Assembly: GCA_037439465.1 (NCBI GenBank)
Contig: JBBIVX010000014.1
Span: forward strand, 7,293-71,292
Length of the DNA stretch: 64,000 nucleotides
DNA from: Hydrogenophilales bacterium
GTDB lineage: Bacteria > Pseudomonadota > Gammaproteobacteria > Burkholderiales > Thiobacillaceae
Direction of reading: 5' to 3'
Shown: positions 17,453 to 62,151 of the stretch, piece after piece
How the letters are laid out: the number at the start of each line of letters is the position of its first letter
Numbering within the stretch: position 1 is the first letter of the stretch
Position numbers and translations under genes: made by a program
Notes under the pieces: model-generated
Told to the model about the DNA's origin: nothing
Database searches by the model: none
What the model saw: the letters and a program-made list of their open reading frames with translations, nothing else

Positions 17453-18141
17453 TATCTCTTCTCCAGTTTATCCAGATGGGGCAGCAGGCGCGGCAGCAAC
17501 CTGCCGGCGCTGTCGTTGATGCCTTTGCCGACCGCCTTGGAAGTGATGGTGGCGCCGGAGATGGCGTCGATCTCCCAGGGGTTTTGCTTGCTGCCGTGTT
17601 TGACCGTCTTCACCGGGTGGGCCAGGGTCGACCGGTCGGGGGCGAGACGCACGTCGAGGGCCTCAAAGTTTTTCAGGAAAGCGCGATCGGTGTTGATCTT
17701 GTCGCCGATGCCGGGTGTCTCGCGCATGGCGATGACGCCGATGCCGGCGATCGCCTCGCGGGCCGGGTCATACGCGTAGAGGATGCGCACGACGTCGGCA
17801 TAGCCCTTGCCGGCGCCCTCGGCGGCGATACCCTTGATATGGCCGGCGGCATCGTAGGCGACATGGAACTTGATGCCGTCCACCGGCGCCGCTCCGCCGG
17901 CGGGCACCACGCCGCCGGGGCCGGCCCAGAATTCATTGACACTGACGGCGCCGGGAATCACCTTGAACACCGCCCGCTCCAGGGCGATCTTTTTGTTGGC
18001 GGTGACCGCATCCAGCGTTCCCTGGTAGGCGGACACGATGAGCACGCCGCATACCGTGGCGACCGCGCCGAGGGTGCGCACCATGGAGGCGCCGGAGGTG
18101 ACTGGCGTGGCAGAAGCGGGGGACGGTGTCGACGCATTCAT
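17452..18141 (-). CDS. rnfG: Rnf electron transport complex subunit G (FMN-binding)
   Basis: 229 aa. N-terminal anchor. The motif ISGATITSKAV is the covalent FMN attachment type (SGAT). Position between rnfD and rnfE. Confidence 0.88.
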   Translation of the reverse strand: MNASTPSPASATPVTSGASMVRTLGAVATVCGVLIVSAYQGTLDAVTANKKIALERAVFKVIPGAVSVNEFWAGPGGVVPAGGAAPVDGIKFHVAYDAAGHIKGIAAEGAGKGYADVVRILYAYDPAREAIAGIGVIAMRETPGIGDKINTDRAFLKNFEALDVRLAPDRSTLAHPVKTVKHGSKQNPWEIDAISGATITSKAVGKGINDSAGRLLPRLLPHLDKLEKR

Positions 18142-20644: not shown

Positions 20645-25591
<4,947 letters not shown>

Positions 25592-25649
25592 TTCCCATCC
25601 TTTTTGATAAGCACCAGATTCTGCAAATCCTGTCGCCGCGTCCAGTGTT

Positions 25650-34815: not shown

Positions 34816-35853
34816 TCAATGGAACAGATAACCCAGCGGGGTCTGCATGAACGCGCCCACCACCAGTATCCAGATCAGGGTGACCGGGATGAACACCTTC
34901 CAGCCCAGGCGCATGATCTGGTCGTAGCGATAACGCGGGAAGGTGGCGCGGAACCAGAGGAACAGGAACAGCACGAAGCTCATCTTGGCCGCGATCCAGA
35001 AGAAACCGTCGGGCAGGAAGGGAAACGGTGACAACCAGCCGCCCAGGAACATGATCGAGGTCAGCGCCGAAACCAGGATCATGTTGGCGTATTCGGCCAG
35101 GAAGAACACCGCGAAGGCCATGCCGGAATAATCGAGGTGGAAGCCGGCGACGATCTCCGACTCGCCCTCGGCGACGTCGAAGGGCGAGCGGTTGGTCTCG
35201 GCCACGCCGGCGATCAGGTAGACAAGGAAGAGCGGAAACAGCGGCAGCCAATACCATTGCCAGAAACCGCCGGCCTGATGCTGGACGATCTCGACCAGGT
35301 TCAAGCTCTGCGCCGACATCAGCACCCCGACCAGGGCGAAGCCCATGGCGATCTCATAGGACACGATCTGCGCCGCCGAGCGCATCGCGCCGAGCAAGGC
35401 ATACTTGGAGTTCGAGGCCCAGCCGGCCACCACGATACCGTATACCCCCATCGAAGTGATGGCCATGATGTAAAGCAGGCTGGCATCGACATTGGCCAGC
35501 ACCCACTGGTCGGTGAACGGCACCACTGCCCAGGCCGCCATGGCCGGGCCGATGGAGAGCACCGGTGCGGTCAGGAACAGTGCCCTGTTGGCGCCAGTGG
35601 GCAGCATGATCTCCTTGGTCATCAGCTTGACCGCATCGGCGATGGGCTGGCCCAGACCAACCAGACGGTAGCCGAAGAAACCGACCCGGTTGGGCCCGAT
35701 ACGGACCTGCATGTAGCCGATGATCTTGCGCTCGGCGTAGGTCAGGTAAGCCACCGCGATCAACAGCGGCAACACGATGACAACGATCTTGACCAGGGTC
35801 CAGACCGGCACCCAGGCCACGCCGAGTAGTTCCTGGAACCATTCCATCATCAC
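34816..35853 (-). CDS. nuoH: NADH-quinone oxidoreductase subunit H
   Basis: 345 aa. [19 protein letters not shown] and [15 protein letters not shown]. Confidence 0.94.
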
Positions 35854-38186
35854 ATCTTCTCCAGGCCGATATCACCGTAGCGCGGGCCGAGCGGACTGGC
35901 GGCGGCGAGATTGCCGGGCACGCGCACCACGTTGTCAGGCAGGCGATCATCGCGCGTGAGCCGCATCACCGTCTCGCCCCCGCCCTGTTTGATCTTGACC
36001 GGCTTGTCGACGACGAGGCCGAGGCGGGCGATGAGGTCGCCATGGGCGGCAGCGGTCTGACCGCCCAGGCCGTCGGCAGTGGCCAGAAGCGCCGGGGCGC
36101 GGCGCGTGTAGGCATCCAGCTGGTAGATAGGCGTCTCGCCCAGCCGCTCGATGCCCGAGAGCGCCGTGAGATGAGACACCGTCACGCCGGTGATGCCATT
36201 GTTCAGTTTGGCGCGCACCCCCGCTTCGCCCTCGGGCAAGGCCTCGGCCAGCACCTGGCCGACATCGTCTTGCGCGAAGCCGGCCAACCCCAGCTGATTG
36301 GCCAACACCCGCAGCACCTTCCAGGCCGGACGTGCCTCGCCCTGCGGCGGGACAACGGCGCGGAAGGATTGCAGCCGGCCTTCCATACTGACGAAACTGC
36401 CCGCGGTCTCGGCAAAGGCGGCGACGGGCAGCATGACCTGAGCGTAGTTGGTGGCCGCGGTCTTGAATGCCGACAGCACGATCACCAATTCGGCGCTGGC
36501 CAGGGCCTGGCGCGCGGCGGCGGTATCTGCCGCCTCCAGTTCCGGCTCGGCGCCGAGGATGACATAGGCCTTTTTCGGCGCGGCAAACAACGCCGCGGCA
36601 TTCAGCCCGCCTTGGTGCGGCCGGCAGCCGACGACACCCGCCCCCACCGCATTGGCCGAGTCGATCAGGAAACCGAGGGTCGCCCCGCTCGCCTGGGCGA
36701 TGGCCTGAGCCAGGGCATGCAGCTCGCTCGCGGCCGGGTGCTGCTGCGCCAGCGCCCCCAGCAGGACGGCCTTTTTATCGCCCGACAGCAGGCTGGCAGC
36801 CATATTGCGGGCCGCATCGGAAACGCCGACATCGGCAATCGCGGCCGCGACCGCGCCCACGTCACGGCCGGCCTCGGCGATGGCCTTGGCCACCTGGGCC
36901 AGGGCGTTCACCAGCGCGGACGGTCTGACGATGAGTTTGTTGGCGACACGGCCAAGCAGGTCGGCGTCGGCGCCATGCACCAGATTGAGTTGCCCGCCAC
37001 GTTTGACCGCCTGGCGCAGACGCTGAGCGATCAGCGGCTGTTCCTGACGCACCGACGCACCCACCAGCAGGACGCGGTCGAGTGTGCTCAGCTCGGCGAC
37101 CGGCATGCCCAGCCATTCGATGCCGCTTTGTTGACCGCCGAAATCGGCGCGGCTCAAGCGCGTGTCGACAGACTCGCTGCCGAGCGCACGGGCCAGCTTC
37201 TGGAATAGATAAAGCTCCTCGACGGTCTGATGCGGCGAGGCGATGAAGCCGATGGCGTCGCCACCGTGGGCGGCGAGGATCACCTTGAGGGCGCCCGCCG
37301 CCTGCGCCATGGCCTTTTGCCAGTCCACCTCCAGCCAGCGGCCGCCGTCCTTGACACTGGGCTGGGTCAGGCGGTCGGCGCCATTGAGGGCCTGATAACT
37401 AAAGCGGTCGCGGTCGGCCAGCCAGCATTCGTTGACGGCCTCGTTCTCCACCACGGTGGCGCGTAGTACCCGTTTGTCCTTGACATGCAGGGCCAGGTTG
37501 CTGCCCAGACCATCGTGCGGACTGACGCTTTGGCGCCGCGACAGCTCCCAGGCGCGGGCGCCGAAACGGAACGGCTTGGAGGTGAGCGCCCCCACCGGGC
37601 ACAGTTCGATGACGTTGCCCGACAACTCCGACGCAACATGATTTTCGAGGAAAGGCATCACCTCCGTGTGCTCGCCACGACCGGGCATACCCAATTCCAT
37701 GATGCCGGCGATCTCCTGGCCGAAACGGACGCAGCGGCTGCAATGGATGCAGCGGGTCATGTCGGTGGCGATCAGCGGGCCGAGGTCCTTTTCCTTGACC
37801 ACGCGCTTGGGCTCGGCATAGCGCGAGACGACACCGCCGTAGCCGACAGCGATGTCCTGCAATTGACACTCTCCGCCCTGGTCGCAGATCGGGCAGTCGA
37901 GCGGGTGGTTGATGAGCAGAAACTCCATCACGCCCTTCTGGGCCTGCACCGCCTTCTCGCTGTGGGTGCGCACCACCATGCCATCGGTCACCGGCGTGGC
38001 GCAGGCGGGCAACGGCTTGGGCGCCTTTTCCACCTCGACGAGACACATCCGGCAACTGGCGGCGATGCTGAGTTTCTTGTGGTAGCAGAAGTGCGGAATG
38101 TAGATGCCGGCGGCGTGCGCCGCCTCCATCACCATACTGCCGGCAGCAACTTCGATCTGTTGGTCGTCGATGGTAATCCGGGGCAT
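35850..38186 (-). CDS. nuoG: NADH-quinone oxidoreductase subunit G
   Basis: 778 aa. 2Fe-2S/4Fe-4S N-terminus: [49 protein letters not shown]. Confidence 0.94.
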
Positions 38187-38187
38187 A

Positions 38188-39474
38188 TCAGGCTCCCACC
38201 ATGCAACGTTTGTGTTCGATGTGGTACTCGAATTCCTGGCGGAAGTGCTTGATGAAACTCTGCACCGGGCCCACGGCGGCCTCGCCCAGGGCGCAGATGG
38301 TGCGGCCGGCGATGTTGTTGCCGACGCTCATCAACAGGTCGAGGTCTTCCGGCCGGCCTTCGCCGCGCTCGATACGGTGCACCACGCGGTACATCCAGCC
38401 GGTGCCCTCGCGGCAGGGCGTGCACTGGCCGCAGGATTCTTCGTAATAGAAATAGGAGAGACGCTCCAGCGCCTTGACCATGCACACCGTCTCGTCCATG
38501 ACGATGACCGCGCCCGAGCCGAGCATGGAACCGGCCTTGGCAACCGAGTCAAAATCCAGGGTGCAGCCCAGCATGATGTCGGCCGGCAGCACCGGAGCGG
38601 AGGAACCCCCAGGGATGACCGCCTTCAAGGTGTGCCCGTCGCGCACCCCGCCGGCCATGGCCAAGAGGTCGGCGAACGGTGTGCCGAGCGGAATCTCAAA
38701 ATTGCCCGGCCGGTTGACGTGACCGGAGACAGAGAAGATCTTGGTGCCACCATTGTTGGGCTTGCCCAGATCAAGAAAGGCCTGGCCGCCGTGACGCATG
38801 ATCCAGGGGATCGAGGCCAGGGTCTCGGTGTTGTTGATGGTGGTCGGCTTGCCGAAGAGACCGAAGCTGGCCGGGAACGGTGGCTTGAAGCGTGGCTGCC
38901 CCTTCTTGCCCTCGATCGATTCCAGCAGCGCGGTCTCCTCGCCACAGATATAGGCGCCGTAACCATGATGCGCATGCAGGTCGAAATCCCAGCCGGAACC
39001 GCAGATATTTTTGCCCAGGTAGCCGGCGGCGCGCGCTTCGTCCAGCGCCTTCTCCCAGGATTCGTAGAGTGCGAAGATCTCGCCGTGGATGTAGTTGTAA
39101 CCGGCCTTGGCCCCCAGGGTGTAGCCGGCAATGGCCATGCCTTCGATGAGCTGGTGGGGGTTGAACTCGATGATGTCGCGGTCCTTGAAGGTGCCCGGCT
39201 CGCCCTCGTCGCTGTTGCAGACGATGTACTTGTCGCCTTCGTAGTTGCGCGGCATGAACGACCATTTGAGCCCGGTCGGGAAACCGGCGCCGCCGCGGCC
39301 GCGCAAGGCGGAAAGCTTGACCTGCTCGATGATCTCGGCCGCCGGTGTCTTCTCGGCCAATATCTTTCTCAGCGCCGAGTAGCCGCCGTTGGCGATATAC
39401 GTGTCCAGGCTGGCCGGATTGGGATGGTCGAGGGTCCAGAGACAGACCTTGGGGCCGGTATAAGGGACGCTCAT
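38188..39474 (-). CDS. nuoF: NADH-quinone oxidoreductase subunit F
   Basis: 428 aa. [42 protein letters not shown]. Confidence 0.95.
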
Positions 39475-39947
39475 TTCAACTCATCCAGCAGCTTGTCCAC
39501 CGTTTCAGGAGACAGGTGGGTATGCATCGTGTGATTGTTGTGCAGACACAGCGGCCCGGCGCCGCAGCTACCCATGCACTCGCCCTCCTTGAGGGTGAAG
39601 CGGCCGTCGGCCGTGGTCTCGCCGAAACCGATGCCGAGCTTCTGCTTGAGGTAATCGGCCACCGTGCCGGCGCCCTGCAACTGGCAAGGCAGGTTGGTGC
39701 AGACGGTGATCTTGTGGCGGCCGGTGGGTTCCAGCTCGTACATGTTGTAGAAGGTGGCGATCTCGTAGGCGGCGATGGCCGGCATGCCGAGGTAGCGGGC
39801 GACGAATTCGACGGTCTCGGGCGAGAGCCAGCCCTTCTCCACCTGGGCGATGCGCAGCGCGGCCATCACCGCCGATTGCTTCTGGTCGGCCGGATACTTG
39901 GCGACTTCCTTGTCGATCTGGGCGAGGGATTGAGCGGATAGCGTCAT
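39471..39947 (-). CDS. nuoE: NADH-quinone oxidoreductase subunit E
   Basis: 158 aa from ATG 39947, which overlaps the nuoD stop (ATGA). [12 protein letters not shown] and [10 protein letters not shown]. The longer ORF-track entry runs into nuoD. Confidence 0.92.
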
Positions 39948-41197
39948 CGATCGATGTCCCCGAAAACGATGTCCATGGTGCCGATGATGGCAACCACGTC
40001 GGCGATCATGAGGCCGCGCGCCATCTCGTCCATGGCGGAGAGGTGGACGAAGCCGGGCGCCCGCAGCTTCATCCGGTAGGGCTTGTTGGCGCCGTCCGAG
40101 ACCAGATAGACGCCGAACTCGCCCTTCGAGTGCTCGATGGCGGCATAGGCCTCGCCGGCCGGCACGTGCATGCCCTCGGTAAACAGTTTGAAGTGATGGA
40201 TGAGACCTTCCATGTCGCCTTTCATCACCGCACGCGCCGGCGGCGCCACCTTGAGGTCGTCGGTGATGACCGGGCCGGGGTTGGCCTTCAGCCAGTCCAC
40301 GCACTGCCGGATGATGCGGTTGCTCTGGCGGAATTCCTCCACACGCACCAAATAACGGTCATAGCAATCACCGTTCTTGCCGACTGGAATCTCAAAATCG
40401 AGGCGGTCATAAATCTCGTAGGGCTGCATCTTGCGCAAGTCCCAGGCGACACCGGAACCGCGCAGCATGGGCCCGGTGAAGCCCAATGCCTTGGCCCGGT
40501 CGGCATCGACCACGCCGATGCCGACGGTACGCTGCTTCCAGATGCGGTTGTCGGTCAGCAAAGTCTCGTAGTCGTCTACGTACTTGGGGAAGCGATTGGT
40601 GAAGTCCTCGATAAAGTCGAGCACCGTGCCCTCGCGGTTGGCGTTGAGCCGTTCAACCTCGGCGGCGGTCTTGTACTTGTTGACCTGGTACTTGGGCATG
40701 CTGTCGGGCAGATCGCGGTAAACGCCGCCCGGCCGGTAATAGGCGGCATGGACCCGGGCGCCGGTCACCGCCTCATAGATGTCCATCAGGTCTTCCCGCT
40801 CGCGGAAGGTGTAGAGAAACATGGTCATGGCGCCGATGTCGAGGCCATGGGTGCCTAGCCAGAGCAGGTGATTCAGGATGCGGGTAATCTCGTCGAACAT
40901 CACCCGGATGTACTGGGCGCGCACCGGCACCTCACAGCCCAGGAGCTTCTCGACGGCCAGCACATAAGCGTGCTCGTTCTGCATCATGGACATGTAGTCC
41001 AGGCGGTCCATGTAGGGCACGGTCTGCAGGAAGGTGCGGTTCTCGGCCAGCTTCTCGGTGGCGCGGTGCAAAAGGCCGATGTGCGGATCGGCGCGCTCGA
41101 CCACCTCACCATCCAGCTCCAGCACCAGACGCAACACACCGTGTGTCGCCGGATGCTGCGGACCAAAATTCAACGTGTAATTTTTGATCTCAGCCAT
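39944..41197 (-). CDS. nuoD: NADH-quinone oxidoreductase subunit D
   Basis: 417 aa from [31 protein letters not shown]. Ends in DIVFGDIDR. Confidence 0.95.
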
Positions 41198-41267
41198 GCC
41201 GATGACCCATGCAATCGGTAGCCAGGACCTGGCCCGGCCACTGGCACGTTGAATTCCGGCGCAGGCC

Positions 41268-41286
41268 AACTTGCCGCAGGCAAGTT
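41268..41286 (-). other. Perfect 8-bp/3-nt-loop hairpin in the unusually long nuoC-nuoD spacer
   Basis: AACTTGCC-GCA-GGCAAGTT, read directly. It lies in a 134-nt non-coding gap inside an otherwise tightly packed operon. Confidence 0.6.
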
Positions 41287-52225: not shown

Positions 52226-52500
52226 GTCCCCTGGCCCTCAAATACTCTCCGCCCGGCAATGGCCGCCCGTACCAAGGTGGCGAATCACCGCTCCGGCCGT
52301 CTCCCGGATACATGGTCTGCGACCCCCTTTTTCGAGTTTTCGGAAATTGTCGCCGTATTGCCAACGAGTTTCCGCAAGAAGCGAACACAATTTGTCTCGC
52401 CGTAAAATAACCATGAATCCGTTCCATAATGCGGCCGCTACAACATCTCACTCTGGCATTGCGGCGCATGGTCACAATGCAGAACGCTTATAAGGCAAGC

Positions 52501-53991
52501 ATGAGTCTCGGTCAAAGCATACGCAGCGGCGCAAAATGGCTTGCCTTCGGCAAGATCGGCAACCGCTTCATGGAGTTCGCTTTCGGTGTGGTCCTGGCCC
52601 GGCTGTTGGTCCCCGCGGACTTCGGCATGATCGCCACCATCAGCGTCTTTACCGGCTTTGTCGGCATGTTCACTGCTGGCGGCATGGGGCAGTCGCTGAT
52701 CCGCGCCAAACAAGCCGACGAGGACGATTTCACCGCCGTGTTCACCCTGCAACTGGCCATGGGCGCCGTGGTTTATATCGGTTTCTACCTGGCCGGCCCA
52801 TGGATTGCCCGGCTATTCGATGACCCCCTCTATTCCGACCTCATCCGCGTCTCGGCACTGAGTTTTCTGCTGCGCCCTTTCCTGGTAATGCGCACGGCCT
52901 GGCTGAACCGGGAGATGAACTTCAAGAGCCGCACCCTGGTGGAGGTCGTAAACGGGCTGTTCACCGGCGTAGCCTCCGCCATCATGGCCTTTGCCGGTCT
53001 GGGGGTGTGGAGCCTTACGCTCTCCGGGCTGCTGGGCAGCCTCTTGCAAAATCTCTGGCTGGCCCGGCTGACTCCCTTGCGGCTACGCCTCAACCCCAAC
53101 TGGGCCGTCATGCGCCGCCATACCGCCTACGGCGCCAAGATCGTGGCCAACGATTTCGTGAACTACCTCGGCAAGGAAGGCAAAAGTCTGGTCATCAGCA
53201 AGCTGGCCGGGCCGGCCCTGCTCGGGCTGTTCAACAAGGCGGAGAGCCTCGCCCGGCTGCCCAACCAGTTATTGATGTCGCCCACCATGGAGCCCCTGTT
53301 CCGGGCCATGGGCAAAACCCAGGAGGACCTGGACCAGACCAAGTACCTCTTCTACCGGGCCATTGCCCTGCTGATGGTGTACACCACACCGCTCTATGTG
53401 ATCCTCTGGTGGAGCGCGGAACCCTTCATCGGCGTGGTCTATGGCGAGAAGTGGATCGCCGCCGCCGCGCCCATGCGCATCCTCGTCTTGATGGGGGTCT
53501 TTCTCAACGTGATGCTGCCAAGCTCCGTAGTGTTGGCGGCGCAGAACCGCCTGGGCCGGGAAATGTTGGCCCAGTCCATCAATCTGCCCATTGTCCTCGC
53601 CGCCTGCGTGCTGGGTTTGCAGGGCTGGGGATTGCCGGGGGCGGCCTGGGGCCTGCTCGCGAGCCAAGTGCTGCTCACCGCCCATTTCTATTGGTTCGTG
53701 CGCCACACCCTGCCCACCCGCGCCAGCGACCTCGTGCGCGCCGCCGCGCCGGGACTCACCCTCAGCGCCCTATTGGGCCTGTTTCTTTTTCTGCTGGATT
53801 GGAAAATCGGCGACTGGCGCCAGACCATGCCGGCCCTGTATCTCATCGCCATGGGGCTGTCGGGCGGAGCGCTCTATGCGGCGCTGTTCCTGTTCCTGCC
53901 CATCAAGTCCCTGGAAGCGGAAGCCGGCCGCTGGCGCCGACAACTCGGCAACGGCTGGTCCGCCCTGCGCAAGGTCCTGAGGCAGACATGA
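52501..53991 (+). CDS. Polysaccharide/oligosaccharide flippase, Wzx-like (MOP/PST family)
   Basis: About 496 aa and polytopic. SIRSGAKWLAFGKIGNRFMEFAFGVVLARLL. Start chosen for an AAGG Shine-Dalgarno candidate 7 nt upstream. Alternatives at 52477 and 52429. Confidence 0.8.
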   Translation: MSLGQSIRSGAKWLAFGKIGNRFMEFAFGVVLARLLVPADFGMIATISVFTGFVGMFTAGGMGQSLIRAKQADEDDFTAVFTLQLAMGAVVYIGFYLAGPWIARLFDDPLYSDLIRVSALSFLLRPFLVMRTAWLNREMNFKSRTLVEVVNGLFTGVASAIMAFAGLGVWSLTLSGLLGSLLQNLWLARLTPLRLRLNPNWAVMRRHTAYGAKIVANDFVNYLGKEGKSLVISKLAGPALLGLFNKAESLARLPNQLLMSPTMEPLFRAMGKTQEDLDQTKYLFYRAIALLMVYTTPLYVILWWSAEPFIGVVYGEKWIAAAAPMRILVLMGVFLNVMLPSSVVLAAQNRLGREMLAQSINLPIVLAACVLGLQGWGLPGAAWGLLASQVLLTAHFYWFVRHTLPTRASDLVRAAAPGLTLSALLGLFLFLLDWKIGDWRQTMPALYLIAMGLSGGALYAALFLFLPIKSLEAEAGRWRRQLGNGWSALRKVLRQT

Positions 53992-54043: not shown

Positions 54044-56062
54044 GTGAAACCGACCCCCGCCAGAATCCTCATTTTCGCTCTGCTGACTGTGACGGCGCTG
54101 TTCGCCTACTCGTTACGCGGCGACCTCTCCGCCCTTTCCCAGCGCCTGCTATCCCAGGAGCGCAGCAAGTTCGAGGCTGCCCCCTTTCCCTACCGGAAGC
54201 TGACCTATCTCTATGACATGGGGGTGGTGGATGCCAACGGTGACGGACAGCTCGACCTGTACACCGCCAATCACAACTACCGCCAGGTACTGCTGTTGGC
54301 CGATGGGCGAGGCGGCTTCCATGATGTGCTGAGCGCGTGGGGACTGGACCAAAGCCGTGCGCTACCAGGTTCGGAACAGGCGCGCGAGGCGCCACAACTG
54401 GACCGCCCAGGGTTGTATATCTACTGGCAGGGCGATGTCCTCCACCTGGTGGCGCACCGCACCGAAGGGTTGGCGCCGATACAAGGCGCCATCCGGCTGT
54501 ACAATACGGTGGAAATCGTTGGCAGGGAAGGATTCGATGCCGACGTCAGCACCACACCCTCATCAACGCCGGGCGGCATCGCCGAGACCCTGCTGTCATT
54601 CAAGAGCGCCTCGCCCGGCCATTTGCGGCTCTATCTCTCCACCCGCGGCGCGCCGGTGCACTTCGATATCGATGCGCCTTGGGCGGCCGACCATGTCTAC
54701 GTAGGCGCCCAGCGCGTTACCCCGGCGGCACCGCAGCATTTCGAGCTGGCCCTGCTGGATCGGCACGCCCTCACCTGGGCCGATTACAACGACGACGGAC
54801 AACTGGATGTCTTCATCAACCGGGGCGCCCTGGGCGGCACCCTGCGGCGTTTTCCCGCACAGGTGCGACAAGGCGTCGGCGACGAGCTGCTGCTCAGCGA
54901 AGGCCCCGGCCGCTTTGCCGATCAGGCGCGCGCACTGGGCATCGAGAAGAAAGACTGCTCCGGGCGTCACGCCAGATGGGTGGACTTCGACCGCGACGGC
55001 CGCCTCGATCTGTACATCAATTGCCAAGACCGCGGCAAGGTGGCGGGAAGTTATTCCAAACAGTTCTACCGGCAGGAGCCGGATCACCGGCTGAGCGATA
55101 TCGCCGCGGCGGTCGGACTGGCCTTGCCGGAGCATCAGATCGTAGACCTGGTCTGGTTCGACGTGGATGGCGATGGCTGGGTGGACCTCTTTACGCATGA
55201 GGACACCGGCTATTACGTCTACAGAAATCGTCAGGGCCGTTTCGAGCGCAGTTTCGTCGCCCGAGGCCCGTTTCACCGCGCAGACGTAGTGGGGCTCACC
55301 GGCGAGACCACCGATTATTGGCAATTCGACGGCAAGCTGAGCGTGGCCGACTTCGATGCGGATGGCGACCTGGACGTCTTCATGGCCTCCAAAAAGGGCA
55401 ATGGTCTTTTGATCAACGACGGTGGCCGGTTCAAGTACGTGCCACCCGCCACCCTGGGCCTGCCGCGCGAGTCGGTGGCCGCCCAATGGGTGGATTACGA
55501 CAACGACGGCCGCATGGACCTACACACCGTGCCCCAGGGTCTGTACCGGCAGGGCGACAAATCGCATTTCGTGGCGACAGGCATGTTCCGCCTGCTGGAC
55601 AACAAGTACCAGGCGGCCATCATCAACTGGTTCGACCGCGACAACGACGGCCGGCTCGATCTCGTCATGGCCCTGCAAGACAACGCCACCCTGTGGCGCT
55701 GGTGGGAAAAACCGTTCAAGCACAATGACGTGAAGGGCGAGGATGACCGCTTTGACTGGGCCATCCAGAGTTACCGCAACATCGGCCCCGGCGGCCACTG
55801 GCTGCAAGTCGCGCTGCAGGGCCAGCCAGGCAACCGTCAGGCCATCGGTGCGCAGGTTACGGTCACCACCCAGGCTGGCCGCCAGACCGCCCAGGTCGGC
55901 GCTCACGACGGGGCCTACTCCTCCCAGGGGCACTACCGTTTGTATTTTGGTCTGGGTCCGGCCACGCACGCCAGACTGCAAATCCAATGGCCCGACGGCA
56001 AGATTCAAGAGATCGGCGACGTCGCCGCCGACCGGCTGTTGCCCATTGCCTACCCGAAATGA
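54044..56062 (+). CDS. FG-GAP/VCBS-repeat protein with C-terminal ASPIC/UnbV domain (CRTAC1 family)
   Basis: 672 aa with a GTG start and an AAAGGA Shine-Dalgarno candidate. N-terminal anchor. At least seven D-x-D/N-x-D-G-x-x-D repeats (DANGDGQLDLY, DYNDDGQLDVF, DFDRDGRLDLY, DVDGDGWVDLF, DFDADGDLDVF, DYDNDGRMDLH, DRDNDGRLDLV). Tail AIGAQVTV...YSSQGHYRLYFGLG. Confidence 0.85.
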   Translation: MKPTPARILIFALLTVTALFAYSLRGDLSALSQRLLSQERSKFEAAPFPYRKLTYLYDMGVVDANGDGQLDLYTANHNYRQVLLLADGRGGFHDVLSAWGLDQSRALPGSEQAREAPQLDRPGLYIYWQGDVLHLVAHRTEGLAPIQGAIRLYNTVEIVGREGFDADVSTTPSSTPGGIAETLLSFKSASPGHLRLYLSTRGAPVHFDIDAPWAADHVYVGAQRVTPAAPQHFELALLDRHALTWADYNDDGQLDVFINRGALGGTLRRFPAQVRQGVGDELLLSEGPGRFADQARALGIEKKDCSGRHARWVDFDRDGRLDLYINCQDRGKVAGSYSKQFYRQEPDHRLSDIAAAVGLALPEHQIVDLVWFDVDGDGWVDLFTHEDTGYYVYRNRQGRFERSFVARGPFHRADVVGLTGETTDYWQFDGKLSVADFDADGDLDVFMASKKGNGLLINDGGRFKYVPPATLGLPRESVAAQWVDYDNDGRMDLHTVPQGLYRQGDKSHFVATGMFRLLDNKYQAAIINWFDRDNDGRLDLVMALQDNATLWRWWEKPFKHNDVKGEDDRFDWAIQSYRNIGPGGHWLQVALQGQPGNRQAIGAQVTVTTQAGRQTAQVGAHDGAYSSQGHYRLYFGLGPATHARLQIQWPDGKIQEIGDVAADRLLPIAYPK

Positions 56063-58074
56063 ACACCCAGCCGCTCATGGACACGCTGCATCTCACCCTG
56101 GATGAATTGTTCTCGACCTCCGCTGCCCTGCCCGCCGCACAGGATCGCCAAGTTTGGGGAATGCGGCGCCACACCGCTTCACCGGCCACGGGGGTCAGCG
56201 TGCTCATCGATCGTTTCGCCGACCGTCCCGATGCCCAGTGCATCTTTCTGCGTACCGATGCGACGGCCGCCAAGGTCCTCCGTCTCGGCGTGCAGGGGGG
56301 CCATAAAGTGGAAGCCGCCGCCGGGAGCGGCTGGCGGCTGAGTCCCAGCGGCCAAGAAGGACCCTCCTATTGGCTGCCGCAACCGCCCATATTGCGTACC
56401 CAGGACAAGCAAGGCCATATCCTCAACGAGCGCGCGGCCGCGCTCACCCATCTGGATGTCTCCGCCGATGGATTGGCAGTAAACCTCGATCTACCCGCCG
56501 ACGGCAGTCTTGACTGGATCATCTGGCGGTTCGGACCGGGGCAGGGTGACTTGTCCACAGGACTGGAATCGTCCCTGGCACTGGAGCGCCAGAGTTATTT
56601 TCTGTGGGGATCCAAAGTCAACGTGCGCCTGCCCGCCGGCCTTTATCATTTCCTGATCCATGGTCGTATCTATACCGACGATTTCGTCTGGCCGCGAAAC
56701 TGGAAATTCCTCTCTGAACTTGACGCTTACGGCCTGTTCAAAGCCCTCACCGGCCTCGAAGTCGCCACTGGCAAGGCGCTCTATGGCCTGCTCCGGCGGC
56801 AGGTGCTCTATTCCGTTCTCGACGCCCAGGCCGAGGATGGCGGCTGGCGGCACGGTGAATGGACGGACCTCATGGAGACGCACCTGCGCTTGCACAACGC
56901 CGCCATGCTGTTGCTGGAGGCGGGCCTGGAGGAATCGGGCGACGTTACAATCCGGACCTCTCTGGAGCGGGCGGCGGCCTTTCTCGCCAAACACACCGAC
57001 CGCACGGACCTGGGCGCCTGGTTCCTGCATGACTCCCTGGAGACAAGCGCCGAAAACATGGAGATCATGCGGAAGCAGACCAGGACACCCTGGATACCCA
57101 GCCGCACCTTGGGCAAGTCCCCCTGCACCAAGCTGATTCTGAACACGCACCTGGACGCCATCGTCACCATGGACCGTTATCGCGCGCTCACCGATGACCG
57201 CCAATATGACGCCTTGTTAGACTCGGCCCGTGCCGCCGCCAGCAAGATTCTGGCGCTCAGGCCGGCCGAGCCCCTCTATCGCTTCCTCTACAAATTGATC
57301 GCGCTCACCCTGCTGCCCAGAGCGCGGGGCATCGCCCTGCCCTGGCCACTGCGCGCCCTCAAGCGCCTGACATGGATGTACCTGTGGCCCAACATGCATC
57401 GGGTCAAGCGCCTCTGGCCGCGTCTGGTCATGCCCTGTGGGCTTATCGAGCGGCACATCGCCCCCCTGCACTTCGACCTCAATTACCACCCGGTCAACGT
57501 GATGGATGTCGTCCGTTACTGGCGCCGTTTCCCAGGGGAAAATCTTTCGCGCCTGATCGACAACGCACTGCGGCCGGTGCAAACCCTGGATCTGCTGCAA
57601 TACTGGACCGAGGCCACGAACCGACAGTTCGCCATCGTCGTGTGGGCCGAGGCCCTGTACCATTTGTGCCTGTTGAAAACCGACGGCGACCTGCGCAGGC
57701 AACTCGCACAATCCATGCTGTGTGCGGCACACAACGAATTGGGCCTGCCTGCCGCGCTGCTGGGCGCCGATGCCGAATCGGCACCTCTGCAAGACCGCCA
57801 TCCCTGCCCGTCGCCCACCGATCCCCGCCTGCGGGTGGCCAACCTGTCGCACGGCACATGGCGGGAAATTCTGGTAGTCAACCCTGGCGATGTTAAGATC
57901 GAACTCGCCTGGGAGGCCAACCACCCAGGCGAGGGAGTCATATGGTTCGACGAGACGGGCCAGCGTTTGAGTGACGATGGCCTGGCGCGCGGCATCACCG
58001 CCGGGGGCTGGGTGCTGGGCAGGGCAGGGCGGTTCGGACCGACAATAATGGAAAACATGGAGATACACGCATGA
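56059..58074 (+). CDS. Hypothetical protein with possible alpha/alpha-toroid fold; weak resemblance to the D-glucuronyl C5-epimerase C-terminal domain
   Basis: 671 aa. ATGA overlap with the upstream gene. Blocks GGWRHGEWTDLMETHLRLHNAAMLLLEAG, AWFLHDSLE, KLILNTHLDAIVTMDRY and LNYHPVNVMDVV line up loosely with remembered GLCE blocks (GWYSAMAQGQAIS; WYEEY; VLNGFMYSLIGLYD; WDYHTTHINQL). Confidence 0.5.
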   Translation: MNTQPLMDTLHLTLDELFSTSAALPAAQDRQVWGMRRHTASPATGVSVLIDRFADRPDAQCIFLRTDATAAKVLRLGVQGGHKVEAAAGSGWRLSPSGQEGPSYWLPQPPILRTQDKQGHILNERAAALTHLDVSADGLAVNLDLPADGSLDWIIWRFGPGQGDLSTGLESSLALERQSYFLWGSKVNVRLPAGLYHFLIHGRIYTDDFVWPRNWKFLSELDAYGLFKALTGLEVATGKALYGLLRRQVLYSVLDAQAEDGGWRHGEWTDLMETHLRLHNAAMLLLEAGLEESGDVTIRTSLERAAAFLAKHTDRTDLGAWFLHDSLETSAENMEIMRKQTRTPWIPSRTLGKSPCTKLILNTHLDAIVTMDRYRALTDDRQYDALLDSARAAASKILALRPAEPLYRFLYKLIALTLLPRARGIALPWPLRALKRLTWMYLWPNMHRVKRLWPRLVMPCGLIERHIAPLHFDLNYHPVNVMDVVRYWRRFPGENLSRLIDNALRPVQTLDLLQYWTEATNRQFAIVVWAEALYHLCLLKTDGDLRRQLAQSMLCAAHNELGLPAALLGADAESAPLQDRHPCPSPTDPRLRVANLSHGTWREILVVNPGDVKIELAWEANHPGEGVIWFDETGQRLSDDGLARGITAGGWVLGRAGRFGPTIMENMEIHA

Positions 58075-58841
58075 TCATTTCCCATTCCAGGAAATTCATC
58101 TTCGTCAAATCGCTGAAGACGGCAGGCACCAGCATCGAGGCGGCCCTATCCAACTATTGCAGCGGTAACGACGTAGTCGTGCCGATCGGCGATTTCGGCC
58201 ACAACCGCGATGCGAAGGGCGGGATCGTGCATCGCGGCATGAACGCCGACGAGGTCTACCGCATGATCGGCCAGCATGTTGATGCCCCCACGATCAGGGA
58301 CCGGGAGCCGGCGGAGGTGTGGAACGGCTACTTCAAGTTCAGCATCACCCGCAATCCCTGGGACCGTGCCCTGTCCTATTTTTTCTGGGACCGGCGCAAG
58401 GATCCGGCCATGAAGCCGCGCAAGCGCTTCTACCATTATCTGGGCGTACCCCTGGATGAGTTTGGCGCGGTGAAAGGCCTTTTCACCGATTTCATCCGGA
58501 ACAAGACCCTCACAGGCGACGACCGCTTCTACGTCAACGACGGCGAGAAACGCTACCGCGTCCCGGCCGAGGGCTTCCTGGAAAACAACGACCGCTTTTA
58601 TGTCGAGGACGGCCGCTTATGCGTCGATTTCGTCATCCGCTATGAACGCCTGCAGGAGGATTTCCATACCGTGTGCGAGCGGGTGGGCATACATCCGACC
58701 CCTCAACTTCCGCAGTTGAAAACCGGCATTCGTATGGGGGGACATCATTACACCGAATATTACGACGACCGCGCCCGTGACATCGTTGGCGAGCTGCACG
58801 AGAACGACATCCGCCTGCTCGGCTATCAATTCGGCCGCTGA
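58071..58841 (+). CDS. Sulfotransferase family 2-like protein
   Basis: 256 aa. PAPS 5'-phosphosulfate loop FVKSLKTAGTSIE. 3'-phosphate motif TRNPWDRALSYFFW. C-terminal YERLQEDF...YYDD pattern typical of bacterial carbohydrate sulfotransferases. Confidence 0.8.
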   Translation: MIISHSRKFIFVKSLKTAGTSIEAALSNYCSGNDVVVPIGDFGHNRDAKGGIVHRGMNADEVYRMIGQHVDAPTIRDREPAEVWNGYFKFSITRNPWDRALSYFFWDRRKDPAMKPRKRFYHYLGVPLDEFGAVKGLFTDFIRNKTLTGDDRFYVNDGEKRYRVPAEGFLENNDRFYVEDGRLCVDFVIRYERLQEDFHTVCERVGIHPTPQLPQLKTGIRMGGHHYTEYYDDRARDIVGELHENDIRLLGYQFGR

Positions 58842-58871: not shown

Positions 58872-59747
58872 ATGACCCAACTACTCCGCTCGGCAGTCAT
58901 CGGTCTGGCGGGCGGCCTGCTTCTGGCCCTGCCCGCCGCAGCCCTGGCCCTGGCGTCGGACACCTCCCTGGCCACGGCGATCTCCCTGGCGCTGGCCTTC
59001 GCCGGCGGTATTACGCTTTTACACTATTGGAAAACCCTACAAGCGCAGATGCACTACCAGGGGCTTGCACAACTTCACCATCGGCTCGACCGCATCGCCG
59101 AGCAGATCGCAGAAACCCAGGGTCTGGTGCAGCTCACCCCCTACGAGCATCCCTATCCCATGCCCTTCGGCGGTGGCTGGGCGCTCACCGCCGATGCTGC
59201 CGCGCTGCTTGCGCGCGAGGTCGCGCTGAACCGGCCGCACATCATCGTCGAGCTGGGTTCGGGCGTGTCCTCCGTGCTCCTCGGCCGCCTGCTCAAGGAA
59301 ATGGGCGAGGGCAAGGTCTACTCCCTGGATCACGACGCCAACTGGGCAGAACAGACCCGCCGGCATGTGCGCGCCAGTGGCATTGCAGAATACGTCGAAG
59401 TCCTGGATGCCCCCCTGTCCAGGCAGCGCTTCGCCGACCACGAGTATGACTGGTACACCGTACCCGAAGCGGTGCGTCGTCTGCCTGCCATCGATCTGCT
59501 CATCGTCGATGGTCCACCCGCGGCCCTCGAACCCGAGGGCACGCCGCGCTACCCAGCCCTGCCGGCCTTTCTCGCCCAGCTCTCGCCACAGGCGGTCATC
59601 TACGTGGACGACGCCAAACGTCCGCAGGAACAGGCCATGCTCGCACGCTGGCTGCAAGAAAATCCCGCCTTCGAACAGCGTATGCACGACACCGTGCCGG
59701 GCACCTGTCTGCTCCGACGGGACATCTACCGCGCGAACCAACCATGA
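58872..59747 (+). CDS. Membrane-anchored class I SAM-dependent methyltransferase-like protein
   Basis: 291 aa. Two N-terminal TM helices. Motif I IVELGSGVSSVLLG. LLIVDGP plus YVDDA, as in Methyltransf_24-type O-methyltransferases. Confidence 0.6.
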   Translation: MTQLLRSAVIGLAGGLLLALPAAALALASDTSLATAISLALAFAGGITLLHYWKTLQAQMHYQGLAQLHHRLDRIAEQIAETQGLVQLTPYEHPYPMPFGGGWALTADAAALLAREVALNRPHIIVELGSGVSSVLLGRLLKEMGEGKVYSLDHDANWAEQTRRHVRASGIAEYVEVLDAPLSRQRFADHEYDWYTVPEAVRRLPAIDLLIVDGPPAALEPEGTPRYPALPAFLAQLSPQAVIYVDDAKRPQEQAMLARWLQENPAFEQRMHDTVPGTCLLRRDIYRANQP

Positions 59748-61048
59748 AGATATTCGGTATCGGCCTCTCCAAGACCGGCACCAGCAGCCTGGCCCACGCC
59801 CTGGAGATATTGGGCTACAAGACGCGGGACTATCCGGGCATCGAACGCTATGCGCCCGGCGACATCACCTGCGTCGACCCGGCCCTGTTGCGGGACAACG
59901 ACGCCCTCACCGATACGCCCATCCCCAGCTACTATCGAGAGCTCGACCGGGCCTATCCGGGGTCGAAGTTCATCCTCACTGTGCGGGCGCGGGAGGGGTG
60001 GCTCAAGTCCTGCCAAAAGCAGTTCACCGAGAAACTCGCCGCGAAGCAGAACGAGGCCCACAACCGTCTGTTCATGGACCTCTACGGCACCACGGTATTC
60101 GATACGGTGAAGTTCGGCACCGGCTATGAGCGCTTTGTCGCAAGGGTGTTGGAGTATTTCAAGGACCGCCCCGATGACCTGCTGATCCTCGACGTCACCG
60201 GCGGCGAGGGCTGGGAAAAACTCTGTCCCTTCCTCGGCAAGCCAATCCCCGATCTACCTTTCCCCAAGGCCAACGTAACGCGCATCCGTTGGATGGACAT
60301 CAACGCCTTGGTCCGCCTGGCCAAAGAAGCCGGCGCGGTGCTCCTGCGAGCACATGTCGCTCTGCAACCGGATGCCCGACGCCTCGCCTGGCACGAACGT
60401 ATTGCCACGCTACCGCGCCGGGTCATCTACAGGCTCAAAGGCGGTCGGCCCCATGTCCTGCGGGCTGCCACCGAAACCGCCCACGGCCTGCTGGCGCAGG
60501 GTCTGACTCGCCTCAACCCGGACATTCCTGTCATTACCAGCCGCCACCATGACGTGCCCTATGCGGAGCGATGCAAGTGGAACCACTTCTGGCTGGTGGA
60601 CGCCTTGGATGGGGAGGCGGGATTTGCCGCCGATGCGGGGGAATACACCATAGACATCGCCCTGATCGAGGATGGGCAGCCCATCGCCGGCGTGGTCTAC
60701 GCGCCTCTGTCCGGCACCGCCTACTACGCCATGGTGGGCAAGGGCGTCTACAGATCTGTGGGGGAAGGTCCGCCAATGCGACTGGGTCAGGCCGCCGCCC
60801 TGCCGACGACCACAGCCACGCCGGCCGCCGCGTCCGCCAGCAAGGCGCTGGCCCTGTGCCGGCGGCTGGAGCCGGGCATGGCCCCGGCCCCCGATCTGTC
60901 CGGCAGCATGGAATGGCACAGCGCCGCCGCCCAGGCCGTGGCCCGTCTGGCCGGACGCCGTATCGTCGTCGGCCAGGACGGTCAGGAACTCGGGTACAAC
61001 AAGGTCGACTGGGCCAACCCTGGCATTCGGGTCGCAGAGTCGCCATGA
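59744..61048 (+). CDS. Fusion protein: N-terminal sulfotransferase domain plus C-terminal CysQ/inositol-monophosphatase-like (PAP phosphatase-like) domain with altered metal-binding residues
   Basis: 434 aa. N-terminal KIFGIGLSKTGTSSLAHAL P-loop (Sulfotransfer_4 type). The C-terminal LNPDIPVITSRHHD...WLVDALDGEAGF...YTIDIALIEDGQPIAGVVYAP...MEWHSAAAQAV is colinear with E. coli CysQ LTPDVPVLSEED...WLVDPLDGTKEF...FTVNIALIDHGKPILGVVYAP...IWDTAAGHAV. Confidence 0.75.
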   Translation: MKIFGIGLSKTGTSSLAHALEILGYKTRDYPGIERYAPGDITCVDPALLRDNDALTDTPIPSYYRELDRAYPGSKFILTVRAREGWLKSCQKQFTEKLAAKQNEAHNRLFMDLYGTTVFDTVKFGTGYERFVARVLEYFKDRPDDLLILDVTGGEGWEKLCPFLGKPIPDLPFPKANVTRIRWMDINALVRLAKEAGAVLLRAHVALQPDARRLAWHERIATLPRRVIYRLKGGRPHVLRAATETAHGLLAQGLTRLNPDIPVITSRHHDVPYAERCKWNHFWLVDALDGEAGFAADAGEYTIDIALIEDGQPIAGVVYAPLSGTAYYAMVGKGVYRSVGEGPPMRLGQAAALPTTTATPAAASASKALALCRRLEPGMAPAPDLSGSMEWHSAAAQAVARLAGRRIVVGQDGQELGYNKVDWANPGIRVAESP

Positions 61049-62151
61049 ACCCCGATAAAAGTATTTACGCCCGTTTCACCGGCCCGGAGATATTTCTGGA
61101 ACAGGGGCGGCTGCTCTTCTCTCTGTTGCATGTCTTCGCCAATTCTGGATACCGGATCAGCCTGTTCAATTACCTGGGCGACAAGCCGCTGGAAAAATAC
61201 GGGCAGATGTTCCACACCCTTGCTGGCCTGACATTGACCGACAGCCCGCCCGCGGCCACTGCGGACAGCTACTACCTCTACGACCAAGCCGACAGCGCCC
61301 TGGCCAAACTCCCCTGGCGGAAGCAGATCCAAGTCCGCTTCGATTTGTTCTCCCCATTCTGGTTTTCCAACCCCATCATCATGCCGTTTCCCATGCACCC
61401 CATGCAGTCTGGCGTCACGCATGACGACCTGGAGGCGCTCCGGACCAGCGAACGCAGGGTCAAGGTCTTCTTTTCCGGCGACACCGAGCACTATCGGCGC
61501 GTCTGGATCCGCTATCCCAAGCCCAAGCTGCCGCGGGAGGCGATAATCCGCGCCGTCATGGAGCGCCTCGCCGACGACCTCATCCTGCTCGACGATGCCC
61601 TTGATCTGGCCAGGCTATACCGTGCCGGGTACACCAACAAATGTGCCTTCACCGCTTCGAGCGCCGTGCGTATCGAGTTTGCCGACTGGCTACCCACCCT
61701 GGCGCGGGCGGATTTTTTCCTCAGCCCGCCGGGTATCGTCATGCCTATGTGCCACAACATCACCGAGGCCATGGCGGTGGGCACCATCCCCATCACCAAC
61801 TACCCTGAGTGGCTCGATCCGCCCCTGCGGCCTGGGCACGATTGCCTGGTCTTCGACGATGAGGACGACCTTATCGCCACGCTCAAAACGGCCTTGGCGA
61901 TGGAAACCGGGCAGATCGCGACGATGCGGGCCCATGTGCTGGATTACTACGAAACCCATCTCAGACCCGAAGGCTTCGTCGGCCGCATCGAATCCAGTCC
62001 GGACAGGAATCTGCCCATCCTGATGTACACGGAGCGCAACGTGGCAAAACACGCGGCCAGACTCAACCGCCACGCCATCCTCATGCAGGGCACCACCCGT
62101 CCGCGGGCGGGTGGCGGCTTCAAGCGGATGCTGGCCGCTTACCTGGGATGA
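61045..62151 (+). CDS. Exostosin-like (GT47-type) or related GT-B glycosyltransferase
   Basis: 368 aa from an ATG that overlaps the upstream stop (ATGA). VFFSGD...ADFFLSPPGIVMPMCHNITEAMAVGTIPI...CLVFDDEDDL resembles the exostosin signature FCL-P-G...R..EA...GCIPV. Confidence 0.5.
   Translation: MNPDKSIYARFTGPEIFLEQGRLLFSLLHVFANSGYRISLFNYLGDKPLEKYGQMFHTLAGLTLTDSPPAATADSYYLYDQADSALAKLPWRKQIQVRFDLFSPFWFSNPIIMPFPMHPMQSGVTHDDLEALRTSERRVKVFFSGDTEHYRRVWIRYPKPKLPREAIIRAVMERLADDLILLDDALDLARLYRAGYTNKCAFTASSAVRIEFADWLPTLARADFFLSPPGIVMPMCHNITEAMAVGTIPITNYPEWLDPPLRPGHDCLVFDDEDDLIATLKTALAMETGQIATMRAHVLDYYETHLRPEGFVGRIESSPDRNLPILMYTERNVAKHAARLNRHAILMQGTTRPRAGGGFKRMLAAYLG

Follow-up and report, generated by a model that had tools for sequence, protein, structure and literature searches.

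A predicted sulfotransferase fused to a CysQ-derived domain that appears to have lost phosphatase activity, encoded in a polysaccharide gene cluster of a Hydrogenophilales bacterium

3'-Phosphoadenosine 5'-phosphate (PAP) is the by-product of sulfotransfer; it inhibits sulfotransferases and is removed by CysQ, a 3'(2'),5'-bisphosphate nucleotidase that converts PAP to AMP and Pi in a Mg2+-dependent, Li+-sensitive reaction. Among enzymes of sulfate activation, the ATP sulfurylase of Penicillium chrysogenum carries a C-terminal domain resembling adenosine 5'-phosphosulfate (APS) kinase that binds 3'-phosphoadenosine 5'-phosphosulfate (PAPS) as an allosteric inhibitor, the corresponding domain of yeast ATP sulfurylase has no defined function (PMC3779200), and an ATP-sulfurylase-like domain of the Entamoeba histolytica APS kinase has lost substrate binding yet modulates the kinase (bioRxiv 10.64898/2026.04.02.716029). 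Here, we analysed a gene from a 64,000-nucleotide stretch of DNA of a Hydrogenophilales bacterium (GenBank assembly GCA_037439465.1, contig JBBIVX010000014.1, positions 7,293 to 71,292 of the forward strand; hereafter the window) whose product joins a predicted PAPS-dependent sulfotransferase to a domain derived from CysQ. Like the fungal ATP sulfurylases and the APS kinases of Entamoeba and Thiobacillus, the fusion protein would be a pathway enzyme with an apparently dead copy of a neighbouring enzyme, kept as a regulatory or structural module. It differs from them in its folds and partners, and, where the dead domain of the P. chrysogenum enzyme binds PAPS, the fusion lacks several motifs presumed to contact the nucleotide. 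The domain nevertheless shows the three marks of a pseudoenzyme domain of the sulfation pathway, namely homology to a pathway enzyme, loss of the catalytic residues and conservation of the domain itself.

Each half of the protein has counterparts of solved structure. Cpz8 (9kf1/9kf2, from Streptomyces), SgdX2 (8y9p) and the Schistosoma oxamniquine sulfotransferase (4mua) have their fold, P-loop and R...S motif in common with the N-terminal half, but these are single-domain enzymes acting on small-molecule acceptors, whereas the fusion adds a pseudo-CysQ domain of 250 amino acids, a setting in a polysaccharide cluster and a dedicated partner predicted to be a GT-B fold glycosyltransferase. The C-terminal half has the same fold as CysQ (E. 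coli b4214; Bacteroides thetaiotaomicron 3b8b; Mycobacterium tuberculosis 5djf-5djk), is colinear with it over the whole domain and shares with it R276, W279, W283, C372, EW and YNK..NP (fusion numbering). Unlike CysQ, it lacks five of the seven residues of the metal-binding and catalytic pattern, the SRSH strand and the GSSLK, ADxYPR and KxDxSPxT motifs, scores at half of the curated CysQ cut-off, has an insertion of 16-25 residues between helices 1 and 2, and is attached to a sulfotransferase.

The descent of the C-terminal half from CysQ was supported by both sequence and structure comparisons. Pfam matched Inositol_P (PF00459) to residues 237-337 (E 1.8e-15, 57.6 bits against a cut-off of 27), and the best NCBIfam match was the CysQ model TIGR01331 (E 9e-34, in two stretches), although at 117.1 bits against a curated cut-off of 228.8; with NF008182 scoring 91.8 bits against 379, the domain fell short of both CysQ equivalog models. 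The closest solved structure by sequence was B. thetaiotaomicron CysQ 3b8b (HMMER, E about 2.8e-22 to 2.6e-21), on which Foldseek also placed the C-terminal half of an AlphaFold2 model (E 3e-14, template modelling score 0.70), with M. tuberculosis CysQ matched as well and Foldseek matches to CysQ, inositol monophosphatase (IMPase), SuhB and HisN structures ranging from E 3e-14 to 1e-8. By MAFFT alignment with the authentic E. coli cysQ gene product, CysQ residues 1-246 were colinear with residues 186-434 of the window protein at 32% identity, and BLASTP gave E 3e-23 with 43% identity over a core of 103 amino acids. An earlier note on this DNA, made from the sequence without database searches, had proposed such colinearity from about residue 200 to 434; the colinearity held, and the start moved to about residue 186, as the helix at 186-207 aligns to the CysQ N-terminus. 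The domain thus belongs by fold to the superfamily of IMPases and Li+-sensitive, Mg2+-dependent phosphomonoesterases, whose members share an alpha-beta-alpha-beta-alpha core.

By its metal-binding and catalytic residues, however, it falls outside the enzymes of that superfamily. The phosphatases follow, in INPP1 numbering, the pattern D54...E79E80...D153-P-I-D156-x-T158...D317, in which D153, D156 and D317 are the ligands of metal site 1, E79, D153 and a backbone carbonyl make up site 2, D54 and E80 make up site 3, and T158 activates the nucleophilic water (PMC7948987). At these seven positions the window protein has T243, S266, R267, D286, D289, E291 and H392, so that only two of the seven are kept and both site 3 ligands, the site 2 Glu, one of the three site 1 ligands and the water-activating Thr are lost. 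These substitutions were general in the family. In an L-INS-i alignment of 118 fusion C-terminal domains with 85 canonical CysQ representatives, each of the seven residues was invariant in the canonical proteins (85 of 85), whereas in the fusions the Asp of VTxAD had given way to Thr (42), Ala (25) or Ser (19), the first Glu of SEE to Arg (84), Ser (11) or Ala (10) and was never Glu, and the second to Leu, Thr, Gln and others. The Thr of DPxDGT was Glu in 70, Ala in 25, Asp in 5, and Val, Thr or Ser in 4 each, and the Asp of WD was Gln (61), His (47), Glu (9) or Lys (1). The Asp pair of DPxDG was kept, in 117 and 118 of the 118 respectively; the Pro between them is Ala in the window protein only, being kept in 115 of 118 relatives, and positions 268 and 269 vary within the family (S/A/D and H/P/A).

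The replacements that the earlier note had read from the sequence, SEED to TSRHHD, DPLDGT to DALDGE and WDTAAG to EWHSAAA, were all recovered by HMMER alignment to 3b8b, by MAFFT and by BLASTP, as T265-S266-R267-H268-H269-D270, D286-A-L-D289-G-E291 and E390-W-H392-S-A-A-A. Its list did not include the metal-site-3 Asp of VTxAD (T243), the deleted SRSH strand or the changed GSSLK and ADxYPR motifs. An ordinary CysQ masked by misalignment, which the note had itself considered, was ruled out, as four independent alignments agreed on the loss of the ligands and no pair of adjacent Glu occurred in the 11-residue loop of any of the 118 fusions in any alignment register.

The decay also extended beyond the metal sites. 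KxDxSPxTxAD, SRSH, GSSLK and ADxYPR, each at least 80% conserved in the 85 canonical CysQ proteins, were all replaced or deleted in the 118 fusions: the SRSH strand was deleted in 118 of 118, leaving about 18 alignment columns filled in canonical CysQ alone, with a linker rich in Ala, Thr and Pro in its place in the window protein (predicted local distance difference test score, pLDDT, of 48 for residues 351-360); the KxDxSPxT loop became (L/R)-G-G-R, GSSLK became S-(K/R)-A-L-x, and ADxYPR was degenerate. From their conservation and from the Hal2p, BPNT1 and M. tuberculosis CysQ structures, SRSH, GSSLK, ADxYPR and KxDxSPxT are presumed to hold the 5'-phosphate and the base. In distant fusion subfamilies, and in the copies of the isolates Methylomicrobium sp. 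wino1 and Desulfacinum infernum, DPxDG was lost as well. One subfamily (P0140) kept the Glu and the Asp of WD with DPxDG replaced by AANDGR, and another (P0191) kept the Asp of WD only. Because the metal-site, water-activating and CysQ-specific residues are lost, the domain is best described as a pseudo-phosphatase, and the survival of only two of seven pattern residues, the variable replacements and this mosaic decay argue for lost catalysis rather than a redesigned active site. Judged from sequence, the C-terminal domain is a descendant of the CysQ 3'(2'),5'-bisphosphate nucleotidase and cannot be a conventional phosphatase.

The sulfotransferase half showed no such decay. Sulfotransfer_4 (PF17784) matched residues 2-179 over essentially the full model (positions 1-212 of 215; E 5.1e-35, 121.7 bits against a cut-off of 22.8), and the P-loop GLSKTGTSS noted earlier was borne out at residues 7-15. 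Sequence searches and Foldseek found the same structures, Cpz8 and SgdX2 (including Cpz8-PAP), to which the N-terminal half is 29% identical by structural alignment. The P-loop aligned with those of Cpz8 and SgdX2 and was invariant from G7 to T13, and K10, D57, R81 and S89 were invariant in 118 of 118 fusions, so that both the P-loop pattern GxxK/RTGT and the Arg...Ser pair of the putative 3'-phosphate-binding motif are kept, R81...S89 being assigned to this motif from general features of sulfotransferases. Among the 118 full-length fusions, the sulfotransferase domain had a mean pairwise identity of 73%, with 80 of 180 columns at least 95% conserved, compared with 44% and 21 of 249 columns for the CysQ-like domain. 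The N-terminal domain is therefore predicted to be an intact, strongly constrained PAPS-dependent sulfotransferase with all its donor-binding hallmarks, and its gene context points to a glycan as the acceptor.

Although it evolves faster, the CysQ-like domain has not been left to disintegrate. The AlphaFold2 model (made with the family alignment as input; predicted template modelling score, pTM, 0.69) gave pLDDT values of 89-97 for the loops of the former cleft. R276, W279, H281, W283, C372, E390, W391, Y418, N419 and K420 were invariant or nearly so, with two single substitutions in one subfamily, and this held in subfamilies 35-46% identical to the query domain, even those without DPxDG. Most of the ten are common to canonical CysQ, whose EW and YNK..NP motifs the fusions keep; H281 is specific to the fusions (99%), as are the conserved W183, which is invariant and has no CysQ counterpart, G233-G234, R235 (73%), K333 (94%) and S366. 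Position 367, beside the lost lysine of GSSLK, is basic in most fusions (Lys in 47 and Arg in 38 of 118). The commonest combination in the old cleft was R235 with S-R266, D286/D289/E291 and Q/H392, which is roughly charge-neutral without any metal. Arginines thus appear to fill the former cation sites, and Arg235, Arg266/267, His281 and Lys333 would cluster beside the relic Asp286, Asp289 and Glu390 in a remodelled cleft. Going by its conservation and the model, the domain is kept ordered and full-length across three bacterial classes and is still functional in some way.

The fusion was widespread. A search of 5.8 billion proteins returned 718 matches, and among the best 120 of these, all 120 had both Pfam domains, nearly all were 420-460 amino acids long and, bar one fragment of 298 amino acids at 80%, they were 52-71% identical to the query; the fusion is one ORF in at least 118 protein clusters, and the conservation figures come from 118 full-length fusions. 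Scanning one genome per species, we found the fusion as a single ORF (open reading frame) in 38 distinct genome loci, in Betaproteobacteria (Hydrogenophilales, Thiobacillus, Burkholderiales), Gammaproteobacteria (Methylomonas, Methylomicrobium, Methylotuvimicrobium, Chromatiaceae, Ectothiorhodospiraceae) and Desulfobacterota (Desulfacinum, Desulfobulbaceae, Desulfobacula). Three loci came from isolates, namely Methylomicrobium sp. wino1 and Methylotuvimicrobium sp. KM1 (complete genomes CP024202.1 and NZ_CP173170.1) and the type strain D. infernum DSM 9756; the wino1 and D. infernum ORFs were read directly and are single. Every locus with an untruncated sulfotransferase domain of 56% identity or higher had the C-terminal domain following in frame. 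Homologues consisting of the sulfotransferase alone were 42-51% identical and came from Chloroflexota, Planctomycetota, Cyanobacteria and other phyla, and in none of 43 such loci was the C-terminal domain present in frame.

In a survey of CysQ-type domains limited to the 150 best representatives of 1.84 billion proteins, this sulfotransferase was in no case fused to a CysQ with intact motifs. Intact-motif domains were stand-alone or fused to APS kinase (P0163), NUDIX (P0186) or RmlD (P0152). In these three, as in the sulfotransferase fusion, the CysQ-type domain is the C-terminal half, but they keep SEE, DPLDGT and WDT (PF00459 E 1e-50 to 1e-57) and the sulfotransferase fusions do not. Two apparently stand-alone degenerate CysQ-like proteins that were checked (P0130 and P0135) turned out to be N-terminally truncated fusions. 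A further protein of the survey (P0121, 552 amino acids) carries two Inositol_P domains in tandem, of the catalytically intact CysQ type.

The features of the fusion gene and of its neighbours are collected in Table 1.

Table 1. Coordinates in the window of the fusion gene, its domains and motifs, and selected neighbouring genes (res, residues; L numbers denote loci with related clusters).
Feature	Coordinates	Strand	Evidence
Whole gene, sulfotransferase / pseudo-CysQ fusion	59744..61048	+	one ORF, two Pfam domains, AlphaFold2 mean pLDDT 88.5, at least 118 full-length homologues
N-terminal Sulfotransfer_4 domain, res 1-180, predicted PAPS-dependent sulfotransferase	59744..60283	+	PF17784 E 5e-35
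P-loop GLSKTGTSS, 5'-phosphosulfate-binding, res 7-15	59762..59788	+	read from sequence
Putative 3'-phosphate-binding motif R81...S89 (RAREGWLKS)	59984..60010	+	conservation
Inter-domain hinge NVTRIRWMD, res 177-185, invariant W183	60272..60298	+	pLDDT <50 at 177-179
C-terminal CysQ-derived IMPase-fold domain, res 186-434, predicted inactive	60299..61045	+	PF00459, TIGR01331 (below cut-off), 3b8b
Former di-Glu metal-ligand loop, TSRHHD, res 265-270	60536..60553	+	alignment
Relic DPxDGT motif, DALDGE, res 286-291; both Asp kept, catalytic Thr replaced	60599..60616	+	alignment
Low-complexity Ala/Thr/Pro linker, res ~345-365, in place of the CysQ SRSH strand-helix unit	60776..60838	+	alignment
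Relic WD motif, EWHSAAA, res 390-396; metal-site-1 Asp replaced by His	60911..60931	+	alignment
Second sulfotransferase, Sulfotransfer_2	58071..58841	+	Pfam E 2.4e-8; syntenic in L001, L082, L083, L084
Upstream Methyltransf_24 gene	58872..59747	+	Pfam E 1.8e-12; syntenic in L001, L082, L083
Predicted GT-B fold glycosyltransferase, 368 amino acids, co-inherited partner	61045..62151	+	AlphaFold2 and Foldseek

The single ORF encodes 434 amino acids in a region of GC content 0.63, similar to the remaining window, and lies inside a polysaccharide cluster spanning about 42.9-64 kb. The cluster encodes members of the NAD-dependent epimerase/dehydratase and UDP-glucose/GDP-mannose dehydrogenase families, an asparagine-synthase homologue, an MBOAT protein, a Wzx flippase (52429-53991), an FG-GAP/ASPIC protein and a protein of 695 amino acids, followed in order by Sulfotransfer_2, Methyltransf_24, the fusion, the 368-residue protein and a glycosyltransferase of family GT2. 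The same gene order was found in a Hydrogenophilales metagenome-assembled genome (MAG) and other contigs, where a deacetylase, more GT2 genes and a Sulfotransfer_3 gene follow, and a version of the cluster with a Wzm/Wzt ABC transporter was also found. The 695-residue protein (55987-58074, + strand) has no Pfam or NCBIfam match; its 3' end overlaps the Sulfotransfer_2 start by 4 nucleotides, and related clusters have its counterpart at the same place, between the FG-GAP/ASPIC and Sulfotransfer_2 genes (662 amino acids in L001 and 682 in L082). ATGA overlaps at both junctions, formed by the methyltransferase TGA with the fusion ATG and by the fusion TGA with the ATG of the 368-residue protein, indicate that the fusion is translationally coupled to both flanking genes. 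No canonical cysQ was seen among the scanned window ORFs, a set that does not cover the whole window.

The 368-residue protein is predicted to be a GT-B glycosyltransferase. Its AlphaFold2 model was confident (pLDDT 90, pTM 0.89) and Foldseek matched it to WaaG, PglA, PimA and EXTL3 at about 1e-6; it has no Pfam match above cut-off, some members of its family weakly match Exostosin, Glyco_trans_1_2 or RXYLT1_C, and its invariant motif is FFLxPPGIxMPMCHNxxEAMAVGxxPxTNYPEW. At 31 of the 38 fusion loci, in three bacterial classes, its gene was no more than about 1.5 kb away, in a downstream, upstream or convergent position, and the contigs carrying its homologues also carry the fusions; it was found in none of the 43 sulfotransferase-only loci. 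The clade is thus marked by the pseudo-domain and the GT-B partner together. A WbsX-like gene was often a further neighbour of the pair (L028, 11499-12572; L029, 8716-9888; L037, 3517-4653; L083, 10686-11765), with PF14307 on record in L083 and the other three assigned by eye from conserved N-terminal sequence; the portion of the cluster that lies in the window showed no such gene.

We consider it probable, at somewhat better than even confidence, that the fusion is a PAPS-dependent sulfotransferase decorating a cell-surface polysaccharide, with the CysQ-derived pseudo-phosphatase acting as a non-catalytic binding or scaffold module. The sulfotransferase half would sulfate the polysaccharide with PAPS as the donor, and the resulting PAP would be cleared by a separate, canonical CysQ. 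The likeliest task of the dead domain would be to position the sulfotransferase either on the acceptor glycan or on its glycosyltransferase partner. We favour this because the motifs presumed to contact the nucleotide have been lost and because the domain varies together with the GT-B partner; less likely, the domain would still bind an adenine nucleotide (PAP or PAPS) unhydrolysed. A more specific form of the proposal, which we put forward tentatively and think rather less likely than its failure, makes the domain a novel type of IMPase-fold pseudoenzyme 'reader' in which arginines stand in for the metal ions and an anionic ligand is bound unhydrolysed, be it PAP, PAPS or a sugar of the nascent glycan that carries sulfate or phosphate; the GT-B step would be coupled to sulfation by way of ordered or gated sulfation of the bacterial polysaccharide. 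Several observations weigh against this view of a sulfotransferase with a non-catalytic, positioning module. The GT-B gene was not nearby in 7 of 38 fusion loci; the hinge was poorly predicted (pLDDT below 50 at residues 177-179, pTM 0.69), so that the docking model has no fixed domain arrangement; the cleft clustering of the new basic residues comes from the CysQ alignment and not from three-dimensional coordinates; the near-invariance of D286, D289 and E390 in the close family is compatible with a single residual metal site or unorthodox chemistry; and the retained Y-N-K, E-W and R276/W279 could be a nucleotide pocket, favouring PAP or PAPS over glycan or partner as the ligand.

The last of these points leads to the most serious rival, in which the dead domain binds PAP or PAPS unhydrolysed as a sensor, allosteric regulator or donor-feeding module of the sulfotransferase. 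We judge this improbable but take it seriously because CysQ-specific residues persist: R276, W279, C372, E390-W391 and Y418-N419-K420 vary little or not at all in any fusion subfamily, including those with a decayed DPxDG, and the basic residue at 367 adjoins the position of the lost GSSLK lysine. The retained residues, three of them Trp, may however be fold core only, the SRSH strand is deleted throughout, and the Ser and Lys of GSSLK, ADxYPR and the KxDxSPxT loop are replaced, their nucleotide role being presumed. A stoichiometric PAP binder would also bring no obvious kinetic benefit. Dead domains from pathway neighbours that regulate sulfate-activating enzymes do provide a precedent (PMC3779200; bioRxiv 10.64898/2026.04.02.716029). 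Of the catalytically dead PAP/PAPS-binding module suggested in the earlier note, the loss of catalysis is supported, and the evidence on nucleotide binding is divided between the motifs lost (SRSH, GSSLK, YPR) and those kept (R276, W279, C372, E390-W391, Y418-K420). The note's other suggestion, an active PAP phosphatase with altered metal chemistry that clears the inhibitory product, fared poorly, and we regard it as very unlikely. Coupling PAP removal to sulfotransfer makes biological sense, canonical CysQ domains occur joined to further enzymes of the PAPS pathway, APS kinase among them, the residues D286, D289 and E390 survive, and a transition metal could in principle be ligated by H392 and E291 of the window protein (His/Glu ligands for Mn, Zn or Co, for example). 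The candidate replacement ligands are not conserved, however, varying at 291 (E/A/D/V/T/S), 392 (Q/H/E), 268 and 269, and this makes new chemistry hard to sustain; both site 3 ligands, the site 2 Glu and the water-activating Thr are gone, with Arg at the Glu position in 84 of 118, the orthologues of isolates and the distant subfamilies lack the DPxDG Asp, and the domain evolves much faster than the sulfotransferase.

Such relaxed constraint, together with the mosaic decay between subfamilies (P0140, P0191), would also suit a functionless relic of an ancestral bifunctional enzyme, or a mere folding or solubility appendage, and the sulfotransferase-only homologues of Chloroflexota, Planctomycetota and Cyanobacteria manage without the domain. 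A relic is nonetheless unlikely, if less so than an active phosphatase, because retention is broad and residues have been newly fixed: the domain is full-length and free of frameshifts in at least 118 clusters of three classes, its fold is confidently predicted, about ten positions are near-invariant across subfamilies, and H281, K333, G233/G234 and S366 are new. The sole domain-less copy found, in the gammaproteobacterial MAG Dive96_bin4.167 (L037, 1900-2418), is a sulfotransferase of 172 amino acids that directly abuts the GT-B partner gene and lacks the invariant C-terminal sulfotransferase motif as well as the CysQ-like domain. It is probably a pseudogene remnant, because the same MAG has an intact fusion (L025), and we rejected it as a natural domain-less variant since the sulfotransferase itself is truncated, leaving the copy uninformative. 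An artefact of assembly or gene calling that joined two adjacent genes, the last rival, is scarcely credible given the uninterrupted ORF in the window, the single ORFs of CP024202.1, NZ_CP173170.1 and D. infernum DSM 9756, and more than 100 independent assemblies; the earlier note had envisaged separate ORFs in relatives, and the relatives encode one.

Hundreds of machine-annotated database entries of the fusion family are named 'PAPS 3'-phosphatase', 'CysQ' or 'inositol monophosphatase family protein'. The sequence evidence suggests that these names are wrong and that the entries are sulfotransferases with a dead phosphatase half, and reconstructions of metabolism in which they are credited with clearing PAP are probably mistaken too. 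Our literature searches found no publication on the sulfotransferase-CysQ architecture, in agreement with the note, which was aware of no characterised example, nor any on IMPase-family pseudoenzymes, so that, as far as these searches showed, this would be the first pseudoenzyme domain of the IMPase/CysQ fold to be described, and another case in which the sulfation pathway has turned defunct copies of its enzymes into accessory domains. With its GT-B partner, the fusion forms a compact two-gene module, widespread in Thiobacillus-type sulfur oxidisers, methanotrophs and sulfate reducers, which could mark little-studied sulfated polysaccharides and offer a possible starting point for enzymatic glycan sulfation.

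Elsewhere in the window, two very large ORFs at 3058-12902 (+ strand), of 1898 amino acids with one OmpA domain and 1524 amino acids with HEAT repeats, have otherwise no recognisable domains and lie in its highest-GC part (0.69-0.72). A protein of 334 amino acids (14149-15153, - strand) ends in an IPTL-CTERM sorting motif (PF18203, E 1.9e-12) and adjoins nadA (12916-14025). A fused pyruvate/2-oxoacid:ferredoxin oxidoreductase of 1671 amino acids (20645-25660, - strand), with POR_N, PFOR_II, POR, TPP_enzyme_C and ferredoxin domains, is flanked by Rnf-type genes (RnfC-like, 19187-20533; RnfD, 18138-19283; RnfB-like, 25650-26531). Genes at 35850-41269 (- strand) are NuoG-, NuoF-, NuoE- and NuoD-like by Pfam (NADH:quinone oxidoreductase), a strong AT skew at 28-35 kb suggests that the nuo membrane subunits lie there, and the nuo operon seems to stop a short way upstream of the polysaccharide cluster.

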